A DNA stretch of 26,855 bases from Actinomycetes bacterium (GTDB lineage: Bacteria > Actinomycetota > Actinomycetes > JAHEKZ01): contig JBJMHG010000143.1 of NCBI GenBank assembly GCA_045807485.1, positions 1-26,855 of the forward strand. Direction: 5' to 3'. Shown piece after piece: positions 2,150 to 8,104 of the stretch (its first letter is position 1; each line of letters starts with the position of its first letter). Position numbers and translations under genes: made by a program. The notes under the pieces are model-generated. The model was not told where the DNA came from and made no database searches. It saw nothing but the letters and a program-made list of their open reading frames with translations.

Positions 2150-2473
2150 GTGCGACGAATCGACGAGGCGATCGAGTCCTTGGCGCCACCGAAGGTCGCC
2201 GGCACTCCGCTAGGAGCTCTAGAGGCACCGATGGCGTTCCGGTGGCGGGGCAGGCGCTATGTGGTCGACTCGGTGCTGGCCCACTGGGTCGAAACCGGCG
2301 CGTGGTGGCATCACACCGAGCGGCCCGACCGCGCCCCACAGCCGGCTGACCCTGAGCGCTGGCTCTGGCGAGTCGAGGCTGGCAGTAAGACCACCCAGAC
2401 CGGGGTCTTCGACCTTTGTCTCGAGCCCGACCCTCCGTCGGGGCGCTGGTCCCTGCACGCGATCTACGACTGA
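2150..2473 (+). CDS. DUF6504 family small protein (107 aa), resembles the ImuB C-terminal domain
   Basis: GTG 2150 preceded by AAGGGGG, in frame with track ORF 2075..2473. MRRIDEAIE...PMAFRWRGRRYVVDSVLAHWVETGAWW...WRVEA...GVFDL...RWSLHAIYD. The ImuB-C resemblance is by eye only. Confidence 0.8.
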   Translation: MRRIDEAIESLAPPKVAGTPLGALEAPMAFRWRGRRYVVDSVLAHWVETGAWWHHTERPDRAPQPADPERWLWRVEAGSKTTQTGVFDLCLEPDPPSGRWSLHAIYD

Positions 2474-2541: not shown

Positions 2542-3015
2542 ATGGCGACGACGACATCGTCTCCCGCAACGCGATCGCGATCATCATCGAGCTCGTCCTC
2601 GGGTTCATCTGTCCCACCGCGTGGGTCCTCCGGCAGCGTCCTCGACCTGCTGGCCGCGGCGCACCGGGGATTGACCGAAGCCGCAGTCGAACCGCGAGCC
2701 AGTCGCCGTTATGCCGTGGCGCACCTCGCGGCGTTGCGAGCGGCTGCGGCGGTCTTGGCGACTCGGGCAAGGCCAGGCGGACGCCGCGGCCCACGGAGCG
2801 CGTGGGAGCTGTTGGCACATGCCGCACCAGAGCTGTCCGAATGGGCCACCTTCTTCGCTGCCGGAGCCGGCAAACGGGCAGCGGCAGAGGCCGGACTCGA
2901 CGCGGTGACCACTCGAGAGGCTGACGACCTGTTGCGCGACGTCGACACCTTCTTGGCGTTGGCCGAGACGACGGTCGGCGTCCCACACCAGACCTCGCTA
3001 CCACGCGTCAGCTGA
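2542..3015 (+). CDS. SAV_6107-family HEPN domain protein (157 aa)
   Basis: GAGGAGGA RBS. Motifs RYAVAHLAALRAAAAVLA, SAWELL...APELSEWATFFAAGAGKRAAAEAG and READDLLRD; Ser-rich disordered N-terminus. Confidence 0.85.
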   Translation: MATTTSSPATRSRSSSSSSSGSSVPPRGSSGSVLDLLAAAHRGLTEAAVEPRASRRYAVAHLAALRAAAAVLATRARPGGRRGPRSAWELLAHAAPELSEWATFFAAGAGKRAAAEAGLDAVTTREADDLLRDVDTFLALAETTVGVPHQTSLPRVS

Positions 3016-3018
3016 CAG

Positions 3019-6000
3019 GTGTCCTTCCCGCATCTTCACGTCGCCTCCGGCTGGTCGTTGCGGCACGGTGCTTCCAGCCCCGAGCTGCTGGTCGAGGTCG
3101 CAGCTGAACGAGGTCTCACCACGTTGGCCTTGACCGATCGCGATGGTGTACGTGGCGCAGTCCGGTTCGCGCGTGCAGCGATGTCGGCCGGGATTGCCAC
3201 AGTTTTCGGCACTGACTTGGCGCTGGTCGGTTCCGACGTTCGAGGACCAACGTCGCCACTGCGGCCCTACGGTCCCGTGCCGACTAACCCGGTGCCGTAT
3301 ACCCGCCCGGTTCGTGCTCCGGTCAAGGGAGGGCGCTCTGTCGACCCGCGGTCGCCACGCGTCACGGTGCTGGCGCGAGGTCCACATGGTTGGGGGGCGC
3401 TCTGCCGGTTGGTCTCGGCAGCACATGCCAGAGGCGAAGCGCTCACCGGGCGAGGCCAGCCGGTGGTCGACCTACCACTCATTGCTGAGTACGCCGCCGA
3501 TGGTGCGTTGGTGGTATTGCTCGGTCCCGACTCCGACGTCGGCCGCCTGTTGGCTCGTCAGCGACCTGACCTGGCCACTGATCGTTGGCGGCTGTGGCAA
3601 AGCCAGATCCCTCAGCTGTGGTGCGAAGTGGTCAACCATCGCGGTGCAGATCCTGCTGGTCGATCGGCGGCTTTTGCCGGCCGGATGCTCCGGTGGGCGC
3701 ACGAACAGCGTGCTCGGGCACTGCTGACCAACACGGTTCGCTATGCCCGCCGTGAGGACGCCCCGGTTGCCGATGTGCTCGATGCCGCGCGCCGACTGGT
3801 GCCGCTCGACATCCGACACATAGATCGCCGCACCGGTGAGGGCTACTTGAAGTCGAGCGCCCAGATGGCTGAGGTCGCCAGTGAGGTGGCACGTCTTTCC
3901 GGAGTGGGCACTGAGCGAGCGACGACTCGCCAGCTGCTCGAGGCAACCGAGCGGCTGGCACACGAGTGCGTACTCGACCCGATCGATCACCTTGGTCTGG
4001 GGTCGGTTCACTTTCCTGAGCTCGAGGTGGTTGATCAGCAGGCAGTGGCGTCCGGCACGCCTGCAGATGTCGTGCTCCGCCGCCGCTGCGAAGTCGGCTG
4101 GTCGAGACGTGGTCTTCCAGAACGTGGCCAGAAATCACGCGAAGCACGTGAACGGCTCGAGCACGAGCTCGCGATCATCGCTGAGCTCCACTACGCCACC
4201 TACTTCCTCACCGTGGCTGACGTGGTCGACCTGATTCGCGAGATGCAGGTGAGGGTGGCAGCCAGGGGGTCAGGCGCTGGATCGCTGGTCACTTATCTTC
4301 TGGGCATCTCAGGAGTCGACCCGCTGCGTCACGACTTGTTGTTCGAACGCTTCCTTTCACCGCTGCGGCAGGCGCTGCCAGATATCGATGTCGATGTGGA
4401 GTCCGCCCGTCGTACCGACATCTACACCGCGATCTTCGAACGTTATGGGGCCGACCGAGTCGCGTGTGTCTCCATGGCCGACACCTATCGGGTCAGGCAT
4501 GCGATCCGCGACGTAGGTGCAGCTCTCGGACTCCCACCTTCAGAGGTCGACACTCTGGCGAAGGCGTTCCCGCACATCCGGGCCCGTGACGCACGAAACG
4601 CCCTCCGTGAGCTGCCTGAGCTCAGAGCGAGCCGAATCGCTGATGATCCCCGCACCCCGCTGTTGTTCTCGTTGGTGGAGCGACTCGACGGGCTGCCCCG
4701 TCATCTGGCTCTGCATCCTTGCGGGGTACTGCTCTCAGACATCACCTTGCTCGACCGCACCCCGGTGGAGTCGAGCGCGATGGGTTTTGCCATGAGCCAG
4801 TTCGACAAGGACGACGTCGAGCATCTCGGCCTGTTGAAGCTCGATGTCCTCGGGATCCGTATGCAGTCAGCCATGTCATACGCCCTTGACGAGATCGGGC
4901 GGGTCGAAGGAGCAGACCACCGCCCCGATCTGGACGCCGTACCGTTCGACGACCCAGCCACCTTCGACTTGATTCGTTCGACCCATACGTTGGGGTGCTT
5001 TCAGATCGAGTCACCAGGACAGCGCGAGCTGGTCGGCAAGTTTGCACCGGAGACTTTTGACGACCTGATCACCGATATCTCGCTGTTTCGGCCCGGTCCG
5101 GTGAAGTCGGACATGGTCAACCCCTTTCTGCGGGCTCGGCACGGATGGGTCGAGCCGCAGTACTTGCATCCAGATCTTGAGCCAGTCCTGAAGCCGACCT
5201 TCGGAGTCGTCGTCTTCCACGAACAGGTCATCGACATGCTTCACGTCATCGCCGGATGCTCACGTGCTGAAGGTGATGAGAAACGTCGTGCGCTCGGAGA
5301 CCCAGACGGGCAGGCCGAGACTCGGGAGTGGTTCTACCGACAAGCCACTGTTCGCGGATACGACCTGCCGACCATCGAGCGGATCTGGGAAGTACTACGA
5401 GCTTTCGCGTCGTTCGGCTTCTGCAAGGCACATGCTGCGGCGTTTGCGCTGCCTACATATCAGTCAGCCTGGCTCAAGGCTCACCACGCCGCCAGCTTTC
5501 TTGCCGGTGTGCTCACCCACGACCCTGGCATGTATCCGAAACGGTTGATTCTCGACGACGCGCGACAGTTCGGTATTTCGGTGCTGCCGGTCGACGTCAA
5601 CCTCTCGCGGCAGGGCTACCGGGTCGAGCGCGTGCAAGTGCTCGACACCGACATGGCTCTTCCTCCTCATCGAGTGCTTCCTCGAGTTGACCCCGAGGTC
5701 AGTCGTCGTCGCGGCGTCCTCGATCAACCTTTGCTTCCCGACGCGCGTGGCTACGGCATTCGAATCGCCTTGTCCGAGGTCAAGGGAATCAGTGAGACCG
5801 AAGTCGACCGGATCATCGCCGGACAGCCTTATCAGTCACTCACTGACTTCTGGCATCGTGCGGCGATTTCTCGTCCGGTGGTCGAGCGCTTGGTCCTTGC
5901 CGGCGCCTTCGACGATCTGCATGACATCGATCTCTCATTGCCCCAAGCGTCCGCCCGTCGTCGCGTGACGCGTCGAGACCTGCTGCTCCAGGTCGCAGAG

Positions 6001-6804
6001 CTTGATCGATGGACCGCCATGCCGGCATCGCGCCGTTCTCGTGCCAAAGACCAACCGATCAACGCTCAGCTGTCGCTTGCGCTCGGTCCATCGGACGAGC
6101 AGATCCTTCCGTCAGGTCTTCCAGAGATGACCGGAGCCGAACAGGTACGGGCCGAGCTCGACGTGCTCGGACTTGACGCCAGTCGGCACGTGGTCGACTT
6201 CTACACACCGTTGCTAAGAGCTCTCGAGGCGGTGCGCTCAGAGGATCTGCTCACGTGCCGGTCGCGCAGCGAGATTCTGGTCGCCGGGGTGAAAGTGGCG
6301 ACTCAGACCCCGCCGATCCGGTCAGGGCGGCGGGTCGTGTTCGTCACGCTCGATGACGCCACAGGACCGGTCGATGCCACCTTCTTCGAGGACGCGCAAG
6401 GTCCTTACGCGGCGACGCTGTTCCACTCGTGGCTACTGGTGATCCGTGGTGAGGTGCGAAGAACTGGCCCTCGGGGGATCTCGTTGCGAGCTACCGGGTG
6501 CTGGGAGCTCACTGGTCTGTACGACCTGTGGCAGCAGAACGGTATTCAGGCAGTTCTCGATCTGATCGACACCCCACCACCAGGATTTGGCGCTGATGAG
6601 GTCAGCGCGCCTGCTCCGGTTGCGCGTGAAGACCAGCCGTCTGGGTACACCGCCGGCGGAATGGGCCGTCGACGCGTTCTCGTCCACCCGAGCGGGTTCA
6701 AACAGTCGCCATATGCCGACGTCAAACCTGCCGGAGGCGACGTCAACCGCGGAACGCCACCACGCAAGCTCTGGCATTCCAGCCCAGGAAGCAGCGGCGG
6801 ATGA
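3019..6804 (+). CDS. dnaE2: C-family DNA polymerase III alpha homologue, error-prone DnaE2-like (1261 aa)
   Basis: PHP domain (HLHVAS, TDRDG), GRGS-type motif AARGSGAGS, catalytic PDIDVDVE (D457, D459) and KLDVLG (D609), SFGFCKAHAAAF, HhH (VKGISE), OB fold (TPPIRSGRRVVFVTLDD). PHP metal ligands are degenerate. Polymerase call is secure; the dnaE2 subclass is inferred from PHP degeneracy and SOS context. Confidence 0.88.
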   Translation: MSFPHLHVASGWSLRHGASSPELLVEVAAERGLTTLALTDRDGVRGAVRFARAAMSAGIATVFGTDLALVGSDVRGPTSPLRPYGPVPTNPVPYTRPVRAPVKGGRSVDPRSPRVTVLARGPHGWGALCRLVSAAHARGEALTGRGQPVVDLPLIAEYAADGALVVLLGPDSDVGRLLARQRPDLATDRWRLWQSQIPQLWCEVVNHRGADPAGRSAAFAGRMLRWAHEQRARALLTNTVRYARREDAPVADVLDAARRLVPLDIRHIDRRTGEGYLKSSAQMAEVASEVARLSGVGTERATTRQLLEATERLAHECVLDPIDHLGLGSVHFPELEVVDQQAVASGTPADVVLRRRCEVGWSRRGLPERGQKSREARERLEHELAIIAELHYATYFLTVADVVDLIREMQVRVAARGSGAGSLVTYLLGISGVDPLRHDLLFERFLSPLRQALPDIDVDVESARRTDIYTAIFERYGADRVACVSMADTYRVRHAIRDVGAALGLPPSEVDTLAKAFPHIRARDARNALRELPELRASRIADDPRTPLLFSLVERLDGLPRHLALHPCGVLLSDITLLDRTPVESSAMGFAMSQFDKDDVEHLGLLKLDVLGIRMQSAMSYALDEIGRVEGADHRPDLDAVPFDDPATFDLIRSTHTLGCFQIESPGQRELVGKFAPETFDDLITDISLFRPGPVKSDMVNPFLRARHGWVEPQYLHPDLEPVLKPTFGVVVFHEQVIDMLHVIAGCSRAEGDEKRRALGDPDGQAETREWFYRQATVRGYDLPTIERIWEVLRAFASFGFCKAHAAAFALPTYQSAWLKAHHAASFLAGVLTHDPGMYPKRLILDDARQFGISVLPVDVNLSRQGYRVERVQVLDTDMALPPHRVLPRVDPEVSRRRGVLDQPLLPDARGYGIRIALSEVKGISETEVDRIIAGQPYQSLTDFWHRAAISRPVVERLVLAGAFDDLHDIDLSLPQASARRRVTRRDLLLQVAELDRWTAMPASRRSRAKDQPINAQLSLALGPSDEQILPSGLPEMTGAEQVRAELDVLGLDASRHVVDFYTPLLRALEAVRSEDLLTCRSRSEILVAGVKVATQTPPIRSGRRVVFVTLDDATGPVDATFFEDAQGPYAATLFHSWLLVIRGEVRRTGPRGISLRATGCWELTGLYDLWQQNGIQAVLDLIDTPPPGFGADEVSAPAPVAREDQPSGYTAGGMGRRRVLVHPSGFKQSPYADVKPAGGDVNRGTPPRKLWHSSPGSSGG

Positions 6805-6841
6805 CGCCGATGGTGAGGCACCCAGGTAGGAGAATGCTGTC

Positions 6842-8104
6842 GTGAGCCGCCAGCAGCTCGACCGGGGTCGACCCGCGCTGACGCACGAGGCCGCGGCCCC
6901 TGATGGGGCCACCGACGACTCAGGCTGTCCGGTTCTTCATGTCGACATGGATGCCTTCTACGCCTCCGTCGAGCTTCGCGACTATCCCGAGCTGGTGGGA
7001 ACCCCGGTGGTCGTTGCAGGCGGTGGAAATCGCGGCGTCGTCCTTTCAGCCACCTACGAGGCAAGACGGTTCGGCGTCCACTCAGCCATGCCGACGTCTC
7101 GAGCCCGCAGGCTGTGTCCCAATGCCACGTTCTTAGAACCGCACCACGCCGAGTACTCACGTATCTCGCAGAACGTCATGGCGATCTTTGGGTCGATCAC
7201 CCCAGAAGTCGAGCCACTCAGTCTCGACGAGGCCTTTCTGGACGTCACCGGTTCGATCCGTCGACTGGGCTCGCCAGCGCAGATCGGTGAGCTGATCCGC
7301 ACCCGGGTTCACGACGAACAAGGCATCACCTGCTCGGTAGGCGTTGCGTCAACCAAGTTCGTGGCCAAGCTCGCATCGGGCCTGTGCAAGCCGGACGGAT
7401 TGCTGATCGTTCCTGCTGACGAGGTAGTTGACTTCTTGCACCCGCTCCAGATCGGCGCCCTCTGGGGAGTTGGCGACAAGACTGAAGAGACACTGAGCCG
7501 GTTGGGACTGCGGACTGTGGCCGATCTTGCCCATACCCCGGTCGGCACTTTGGAGCGTGCGCTCGGACCGGCCGCCGGACGACACCTGTGGGAACTCGCG
7601 TGGGGACGCGACGAGCGGGTGGTGGTCCCTGATGCCGCCGAGAAGAGTGTCAGCCGCGACCGCACGTTCGACGTTGATGTTGACGACCCAGAGATCGTTC
7701 GACGAGAGCTGCTGAGGCTCTCCCAGAGTGTCGCCTCTCAGCTTCGCAGCCACGACCTGGCTTCGCGCACCATCGCGGTGAAGATCAGGTTCGCCGACTT
7801 CAGCACCATCAGTCGGTCTCGCACCCTGGCGCACCCCACCGATATCGCTTACGACATCTACACCACGGCGGTGGGGTTGTACGAGGCGCTCGGCCTCGAC
7901 CGGGCCAGGATCCGGCTGGTGGGCGTCCGCGCCGAGGGGCTCATGGACGGTTCTACGGTCGCCCGTCAGCTGACCTTCGATGAGCAGCCAGAGGCCTGGC
8001 GTGATGCGGAGCGGGCCGCAGACCAAGCCGCCCAGCGATTCGGCCGGGGGGCAGTTCGCCCAGCGAGCCTGGTCGAACCACGCACCGATCGAGACTTATC
8101 GTGA
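6842..8104 (+). CDS. dinB: DNA polymerase IV (Y-family), catalytically intact (420 aa)
   Basis: HVDMDAFYASVE (D35), SATYEARRFGVHSAMP, SLDEAFLD (D129, E130), KFVAKLAS..KPDG, WGVG, little finger (VKIRFADF..ISRSRTL, IRLVGVR), C-terminal QLTF. AGGAG RBS upstream of GTG. Confidence 0.95.
   Translation: MSRQQLDRGRPALTHEAAAPDGATDDSGCPVLHVDMDAFYASVELRDYPELVGTPVVVAGGGNRGVVLSATYEARRFGVHSAMPTSRARRLCPNATFLEPHHAEYSRISQNVMAIFGSITPEVEPLSLDEAFLDVTGSIRRLGSPAQIGELIRTRVHDEQGITCSVGVASTKFVAKLASGLCKPDGLLIVPADEVVDFLHPLQIGALWGVGDKTEETLSRLGLRTVADLAHTPVGTLERALGPAAGRHLWELAWGRDERVVVPDAAEKSVSRDRTFDVDVDDPEIVRRELLRLSQSVASQLRSHDLASRTIAVKIRFADFSTISRSRTLAHPTDIAYDIYTTAVGLYEALGLDRARIRLVGVRAEGLMDGSTVARQLTFDEQPEAWRDAERAADQAAQRFGRGAVRPASLVEPRTDRDLS

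Follow-up and report, generated by a model that had tools for sequence, protein, structure and literature searches.

The window analysed here is a stretch of 26,855 nucleotides (nt) from an Actinomycetes bacterium (assembly GCA_045807485.1, contig JBJMHG010000143.1, positions 1 to 26,855). It carries on its forward strand a tightly spaced operon, in which a putative LexA (SOS) box is followed by a gene for a small protein of the Pfam family DUF6504 (PF20114), a gene for a HEPN_SAV_6107 protein, a gene for a DnaE-type polymerase and a gene for a Y-family polymerase (PolY) of the Pol IV type. The genes flanking this operon are unrelated to it. The genome is a metagenome-assembled genome (MAG) of 84% completeness, whose close relatives are uncultured Actinomycetes and whose more distant ones belong to Nocardioidaceae. 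The subject of this study is the first gene of the operon, an open reading frame (ORF) at positions 2150-2473, and its relation to the C-terminal domain of the mutasome protein ImuB (ImuB-C).

The ImuB-C superfamily was defined in 2013 by Aravind and colleagues, who described stand-alone versions in SOS operons together with DinB, UmuC and DnaE2 (PMC3765255). Variants that lack ImuA and possess a stand-alone ImuB-C were reported by Timinskas and Venclovas in 2019, and two-hybrid data cited in that work indicate that the C-terminal region of ImuB binds DnaE2 and ImuA' (PMC6511836). Recently, a survey of 2026 (NAR, PMC12926913) presented a fourth DnaE2B group that is associated with RecA, stand-alone ImuB-C and a PolY which appears to be active; this group is confined to Actinobacteria and is exemplified by Tessaracoccus lapidicaptus. 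AlphaFold models in the same survey place ImuB-C as a beta-barrel on DnaE2's PHP domain, and this barrel differs from the SH3-like barrel of UmuD' and YqjX. The label DUF6504 is absent from the searchable literature. The equivalence of DUF6504 and ImuB-C is implicit in the literature and is not stated there.

Results

The DUF6504 gene and its family

The ORF at 2150-2473 (+ strand) comprises 107 codons and a stop codon. It opens with GTG, which coincides with the consensus start of the family (M-x-R-R-Y) and is preceded by a Shine-Dalgarno-like AAGGGGG run 6-7 nt further 5'. The Pfam model of DUF6504 covers residues 2-106 of the 107 amino acids (aa) with an E-value of 7.1e-18 and 65.2 bits (Pfam cut-off 24.2), and NCBIfam contains no model that matches the ORF. 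Searched exhaustively, a set of 1.84 billion representative proteins contained 501 related representative clusters with E<=1e-3. Among these relatives the best 150 are without exception short (56-256 aa), and 145 related stretches were confirmed by tblastn in reference genomes. The ORF is a true gene, and a chance ORF is excluded.

Conservation was read from an alignment of 66 homologues (A1), which also served as the family profile. Invariant in all 66 sequences are P27, W46, W52, W53, W73, R74 and W100, and R35 is conserved in at least 90%. These positions lie largely in three motifs, P27-x-x-F30-R-W32-R-G-R35, W46-x-E48-x-x-x-W52-W53 and, at the extreme C-terminus, R99-W100-x-L102-x-x-x-Y106-D107. 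A preliminary description of the locus, made from the letters of the sequence, had singled out the pattern formed by these three motifs. All its elements are present and, because its residues include invariant positions of A1, the pattern represents a real family signature. A similar pattern, which the description had ascribed to ImuB proteins, likewise exists: one mycobacterial ImuB examined ends with ...T-I-R-G-R...W-x5-W-W...R-R-W-Y-L-E-G-I-Y-E.

In the Pfam scan the ORF shows no IMS domain and with its 107 aa is unlike fused ImuB of about 450-530 aa. Directly 5' of it lie a leader and the LexA box. Open frames of 377-425 aa around DUF6504 matches in other genomes gave the appearance of fusions; these were rejected as overlapping frames in high-GC DNA, where the true genes are ImuB-C and, behind it, HEPN or DnaE. 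Of the 31 close relatives, the genome of the window counted, 28 contain PF20114; in a sample of 251 genomes spanning the phylum Actinomycetota the number is 102 (E<=0.01). Both tallies include the unpublished genomes G024, G031, G077 and G149, on which no conclusion rests. One genome of the same class that has no PF20114 match (G019) contains a weak ImuB-like IMS match (E 4e-11) in a frame of 671 aa, and the DUF6504-bearing genus has no such match. This single case may indicate that genomes carry either a fused ImuB or a stand-alone ImuB-C, but not both.

Profile comparison with ImuB C-termini

As ImuB references we used two proteins from genomes of the class of the window, which match Mycobacterium ImuB records, and eight plasmid proteins mostly encoded in imuA-imuB-dnaE2 cassettes (Manganitrophus, Microbacterium, Granulicella, Cereibacter, Janthinobacterium, Cupriavidus, Rhodanobacter, Kozakia). 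Aligned by hhalign with ten diverse ImuB C-termini, the A1 profile gave a probability of 94.2% and an E-value of 1.2e-7 over 83 columns, extending from the first strand to the last residue. With 56 ImuB C-termini, the values were 93.7% and 1.9e-7 at a score of 44.4. Control comparisons scored far lower, namely 19.3 for the reversed profile, at most 15.7 for 60 column shuffles (mean 10.8, standard deviation 2.0) and at most 24.6 for 60 block shuffles.

Comparisons of a profile with single sequences are here at the limit of their reach. The Pfam DUF6504 model gives sub-threshold matches (E 0.0024-0.067) exactly at the C-terminus of three of six proteobacterial or acidobacterial ImuB proteins. 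For a hidden Markov model (HMM) built from A1, 229 of 232 ImuB sequences, a set that is not mutually independent, have the best domain at their C-terminal end. Among 14 control genomes PF20114 passes its cut-off only in Caulobacter vibrioides, a species with a characterised ImuB (the place of the match is not shown).

Predicted structure

The AlphaFold2 (AF2) model of the 107-aa protein, built with alignment A1, is all beta with seven strands and has a predicted local distance difference test score (pLDDT) of 84.9 and a predicted template modelling score (pTM) of 0.75. In a Foldseek search against 550,129 Swiss-Prot models of the AlphaFold database (AFDB), two Caulobacter ImuB entries rank first and second (probability 1.00, E 3.7e-3, template modelling (TM) score by query 0.66, 23% identity, query residues 1-107). 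The third match has an E-value of 1.7 and a TM score of 0.24, which leaves Caulobacter ImuB as the only credible Swiss-Prot match.

In the ESM Atlas, after the DUF6504 clusters themselves, the nearest shapes are clusters of 503-550 aa, mostly with PF00817 (ImuB-type), from Acidobacteriota, Pseudomonadota and Planctomycetota (TM by query 0.67-0.70, root mean square deviation 1.9-2.6 A over 84-91 residues). In two matched ImuB-type clusters, one of 510 aa with PF00817 and one of 319 aa with IMS_C only, 12% and 37% of members, respectively, already bear a Pfam annotation as PF20114. The fold clusters of AFDB returned small proteins of the DUF6504 type only, and the ESM Atlas queried by features returned DUF6504 clusters only.

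Searches of the PDB gave noise. By family-profile sequence the best entry was coagulation factor VIII (E 0.4), by fold Foldseek returned nothing below E 1, and an exhaustive VIA-align comparison peaked with cystatin-like sheets at Z 5.9, a value lower than the noise level given for the method. As candidates, the SH3-like barrel and the S24 peptidase fold of the UmuD'/YolD type were set aside, there being neither a PDB sequence match nor a Foldseek PDB match below E 1 and VIA Z values not exceeding 5.9. Because the PDB fold searches gave noise, we name no solved relative and make no SH3 assignment. The literature likewise states that the PDB holds no close relative of ImuB-C (PMC12926913).

The preliminary description had proposed that the protein is the same beta-rich module as ImuB-C, and had named a profile comparison with ImuB and a Foldseek search of the predicted structure as checks. 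Both came out in its favour, the former as a controlled end-to-end match of 94% probability and the latter as an all-beta model that matches ImuB. From profile alignment and predicted fold, we conclude that DUF6504 and ImuB-C are one and the same domain and that ORF 2150-2473 encodes a free-standing copy of it.

Operon and LexA box

The LexA box at 2014-2029 (TCGAAC-N4-GTTCGA), to which LexA is predicted to bind, is perfect in 12 of 12 positions and is the sole zero-mismatch LexA site within the window. It is centred in a perfect palindrome at 2004-2039, in which a spacer of 4 nt separates two 16-nt arms (CTTCAGGTATTCGAAC and its complement). Part of the flank of the box is common to relatives (ATAC after the box).

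For comparison the best 80 related loci from reference genomes were examined. In 78 of them the DUF6504 gene has a perfect LexA box within the 260 nt upstream, and the gene order ImuB-C, HEPN, DnaE, PolY recurs in most. The HEPN gene stands between ImuB-C and DnaE in about 70 loci and is missing from about ten. In more distant loci ImuB-C is found directly upstream of DnaE, with no intervening HEPN gene. In four Marmoricola loci the DnaE gene is missing from its place after HEPN, so that ImuB-C, HEPN and PolY adjoin one another; a second DnaE is encoded elsewhere in all three tested Marmoricola genomes whose operon lacks it. Many relatives of the Nocardioidaceae type (loci L047-L110) have 0.8-1.9 kb between DnaE and PolY, which gives room for at least one extra gene; the gap in the window is 37 nt (6805-6841). 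LexA box and domain matches agree with the earlier proposal that the gene is the first of an SOS operon, in which a DnaE2-type enzyme and DinB are also encoded, SOS control being predicted.

Polymerases of the operon

The third gene (3019-6804, + strand) starts 3 nt past the HEPN stop codon and encodes a second C-family polymerase of 1261 aa with PHP, DNA_pol3_alpha, finger, HHH_6 and OB domains. Its best NCBIfam model is 'error-prone DNA polymerase', which it matches below the cut-off. The genome contains two PF07733 genes, a DnaE1-like gene on contig C85 (340 bits) and the gene of the window (252 bits), whose product is 30% identical to canonical DnaE2 and 27% identical to DnaE1 of the same genome. 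As in the published DnaE2B-[ImuB-C]-PolY-RecA module, an accessory C-family polymerase is therefore present besides the replicative DnaE1. The C-terminus (6760-6804) consists of a tail ...P-R-K-L-W-H-S-S-P-G-S-S-G-G behind a long low-complexity linker. This extreme tail appears to be conserved, because tblastn alignments reach residue 1253-1260 of 1261 in most loci. The C-terminal ends of canonical DnaE2 and of DnaE1 from the same genome are different.

The fourth gene (6842-8104, + strand) encodes a Y-family polymerase of the Pol IV/DinB type with 420 aa (IMS, E 2e-51; IMS_C, E 2e-27), which passes the Pol IV subfamily model of NCBIfam above its cut-off. The catalytic motifs DMDAFYASVE and SLDEAF are present and the enzyme looks active. 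Its C-terminal end contains a QLTF stretch resembling a clamp motif, followed by ...A-A-Q-R-F-G-R-G-A-V-R-P.... The tail A-x-D-x-A-x-x-R-F-G-x-x-A-V-x-P is kept in essentially all 61 orthologous tails and, judged by inspection and with no statistic attached, parallels the N-terminus of RecA from the same genome, QIERQFGKGSVMRLG (...I-E-R-Q-F-G-K-G-S-V-M-R...). The part of the tail beyond this putative RecA-NT motif is conserved as well. Judging by its sequence, the PolY of the window resembles that of the published module in being apparently active and in carrying a RecA-NT-like motif.

The genome of the window has one IMS gene only, and its one match to the RecA Pfam model is RecA itself. No ImuB-type Y-family gene was found in this 84%-complete MAG. 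Genomes of the same genus, among them the unpublished G024, gave strong DinB-type IMS matches only and no weak ImuB-type match.

HEPN gene and leader hairpin

The second gene (2542-3015, + strand) encodes a HEPN_SAV_6107 protein of 157 aa (PF18726, E 2.4e-33), in which a helical domain of very high conservation follows a Ser-rich low-complexity N-terminus. Its conservation by far exceeds that of ImuB-C in the same loci, with identities of 50-96% versus 31-71%. Many residues are invariant in 61 sequences, among them R56-Y-A-x-A-H61 (R-x4-H spacing), K111-R112 and D128-D129. The HEPN survey of 2013 lists the family without a conserved Rx4-6H motif and without gene context (PMC3710099).

Between the LexA box and the start codon lies a leader hairpin (2076-2114, + strand) with a 15-bp stem and a 9-nt loop, CCUCGACCC. 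The leader folds with a z-score of -2.96 versus shuffled sequences. Of 81 loci, 73 contain the loop core TCGACCC upstream of ImuB-C, versus 13% of random 270-nt windows. Uninterrupted stems of at least 8 bp are present in 52 loci; as these carry 44 different stem sequences, the stem covaries and the loop stays fixed. Rfam contains no match to the hairpin. The loop may resemble the anti-Shine-Dalgarno end of 16S rRNA (ACCUCC). A dependence of the hairpin on the HEPN gene was considered and set aside. Only two of the approximately nine HEPN-less loci lack the loop motif, and since most of them keep it, a strict dependence is unsupported.

As parts of this operon, the HEPN gene and the conserved leader hairpin seem to be undescribed: neither is mentioned in the main text of the 2026 polymerase survey (PMC12926913). 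A model in which the HEPN protein and the hairpin with the CCUCGACCC loop form an RNA-level checkpoint on mutasome expression or assembly, with ImuB-C as one arm of a five-part unit, is speculative, and we regard it as improbable.

Discussion

ORF 2150-2473 very probably encodes a free-standing ImuB-C at the head of a LexA-repressed operon with HEPN, a second DnaE and a Pol IV-type polymerase, and belongs to a split-ImuB mutasome of the composition DnaE2B-[ImuB-C]-PolY-RecA. The locus is assigned to the published actinobacterial 'split ImuB' mutasome because of the content of the operon and because no ImuB-type gene was found. Upon DNA damage, cleavage of LexA would derepress the operon. The ImuB-C protein would then dock on the DnaE2-type polymerase at the latter's PHP domain, the site that ImuB-C takes in models of the mycobacterial mutasome. 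Together with PolY, which contributes the clamp motif and RecA-NT, and with RecA, which would take the place of ImuA, the two might form an ImuA-free translesion complex at the beta clamp. An adaptor role of ImuB-C for the DnaE2-type enzyme is suggested by the genomic context and by analogy with the published models. The analysis itself establishes homology and identity of fold with ImuB-C, the order of the genes, the conserved LexA box, the second DnaE and the failure to find an ImuB gene; SOS induction, the physical contacts and a mutagenic output of the complex we infer.

Several observations weigh against this interpretation. At the level of homology, the Pfam DUF6504 model gives no match in mycobacterial, Microbacterium or Manganitrophus ImuB, the A1 HMM does not exceed 15 bits against ImuB sequences, so that profile-to-sequence evidence is weak, and in the reverse test an HMM of ten ImuB-C sequences ranks ORF 2150-2473 second among the six-frame ORFs of the genome at a non-significant E-value of 0.35. 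As Foldseek prints no target range, the position of the structural match in Caulobacter ImuB is taken to be the C-terminus from the sequence results. At the level of the system, the polymerase of the window is placed in the published 'DnaE2B' clade by context and not by the tree of PMC12926913. The missing ImuB reads only as 'not found' because the MAG is 84% complete, and the RecA Pfam model gave no ImuA match in the genome, ImuA not having been searched directly. Finally, DnaE2 is perhaps not the sole or primary partner of ImuB-C, because Geobacter-type operons exist that combine ImuB-C and PolY without DnaE2 (PMC6511836).

This last point leads to an alternative which we consider unlikely, namely that ImuB-C is mainly a small regulatory subunit of PolY, analogous to UmuD'/YolD, which binds the PolY tail or RecA and has the DnaE2-type enzyme as a secondary passenger. 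Besides the lexA-imuB-C-polY operons of Geobacter, the discussion of the 2026 survey lists ImuB-C among putative PolY-binding regulatory subunits (PMC12926913), the four Marmoricola loci keep ImuB-C, HEPN and PolY contiguous with no DnaE, and the PolY tail past the RecA-NT motif is conserved. The three tested Marmoricola genomes, however, retain a second DnaE elsewhere, distant loci have ImuB-C directly 5' of DnaE, and a published group combines ImuB-C with DnaE2B only. Moreover, DnaE2 and ImuA are the partners of ImuB-C in published models and two-hybrid data (PMC12926913, PMC6511836). Rather less probable is the proposal of Aravind and colleagues (2013) that ImuB-C binds DNA as a sensor of damage or of stalled-fork structures and guides the neighbouring repair enzyme, whichever it is, instead of serving as a protein-protein adaptor. 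Stand-alone ImuB-C accompanies many different repair systems, among them DinB, UmuC, Ku plus ligase and the SplB photolyase (PMC3765255), and nucleic-acid binding would be in keeping with the basic and aromatic residues that are conserved (R35, R74 and five invariant Trp). Yet the PDB matches, generic curved beta-sheets with Z<=5.9 and none from Foldseek below E 1, include no nucleic-acid-binding fold, and in the published complex models the interface of ImuB-C is with a protein, namely with the DnaE2 PHP domain. Sensor and adaptor roles can coexist, and both alternatives are possibly compatible in part with a split-ImuB mutasome.

That the likeness to ImuB-C is convergent or due to chance, DUF6504 being an unrelated Trp-rich beta protein, is very improbable. 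It would accord with the low HMM-to-sequence scores, with an hhalign probability of 3.5% for a single mycobacterial ImuB tail against the profile, an uninformative value, and with the fact that Pfam does not annotate PF20114 on the ImuB proteins examined. But the profile-profile score lies about 17 standard deviations above the column shuffles and is nearly twice that of the best block shuffle, the alignment keeps its register between the first strand and the terminal W-x-L-x-x-x-Y-[DE], ImuB is singled out by the structural search, and the genomic context is shared. A chance resemblance is essentially excluded.

The split-ImuB interpretation gives a functional name, ImuB-C, to a DUF that is widespread in Actinomycetota, and the annotation should become 'ImuB C-terminal domain protein'. 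The preliminary description had promised as much. Its identification of ImuB-C was correct and is supported by hhalign and Foldseek, but the idea is not new, having been published in 2013, 2019 and 2026 (PMC3765255, PMC6511836, PMC12926913). Because the main point is already in the literature, the practical value of the assignment is limited. It also indicates that a split SOS mutasome free of ImuA is present in Actinomycetota, many uncultured lineages among them. The separate ImuB-C, active PolY and DnaE2B could serve as a compact natural system for dissecting the biochemistry of ImuB-C.

Comparison with known systems

The 107-aa protein is a clear member of Pfam PF20114 (DUF6504), a family which itself bears no functional name. 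With the UmuD' and YolD (YqjX) subunits of Pol V-type mutasomes it has in common that it is a small beta-rich accessory of a presumed SOS mutasome, but neither the sequence nor the fold searches gave a match to them. Closer are the stand-alone ImuB-C proteins of the Geobacter lexA-imuB-C-polY and Kyrpidia iPolY-imuB-C-dnaE2 operons, which are likewise small and beta-rich, have the conserved C-terminal Trp and basic residues and belong to LexA-linked operons of mutagenic polymerases. These examples differ in that DnaE2 is missing, PolY is inactive or lexA lies inside the operon, and no HEPN partner has been reported for them.

The canonical ImuA(')-ImuB-DnaE2 mutasome of Mycobacterium, Caulobacter and Pseudomonas shares with the locus the ImuB-C module, a DnaE2-type polymerase, predicted SOS control and a RecA-NT motif by the clamp-binding motif. 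There, ImuB-C forms the end of ImuB, after a dead Y-family core and RecA-NT, whereas here it is a separate protein of 107 aa. The Y-family partner in the window keeps its catalytic residues, unlike the dead ImuB, and RecA presumably stands in the place of ImuA, which was not searched directly. The nearest known system is the DnaE2B-[ImuB-C]-PolY-RecA module. To this module the window adds a HEPN_SAV_6107 gene and a leader hairpin, features beyond those in the main text of PMC12926913, and it shares with the module the stand-alone ImuB-C, a second C-family polymerase, an active-looking PolY with a RecA-NT-like motif, a RecA encoded elsewhere and an actinobacterial host.

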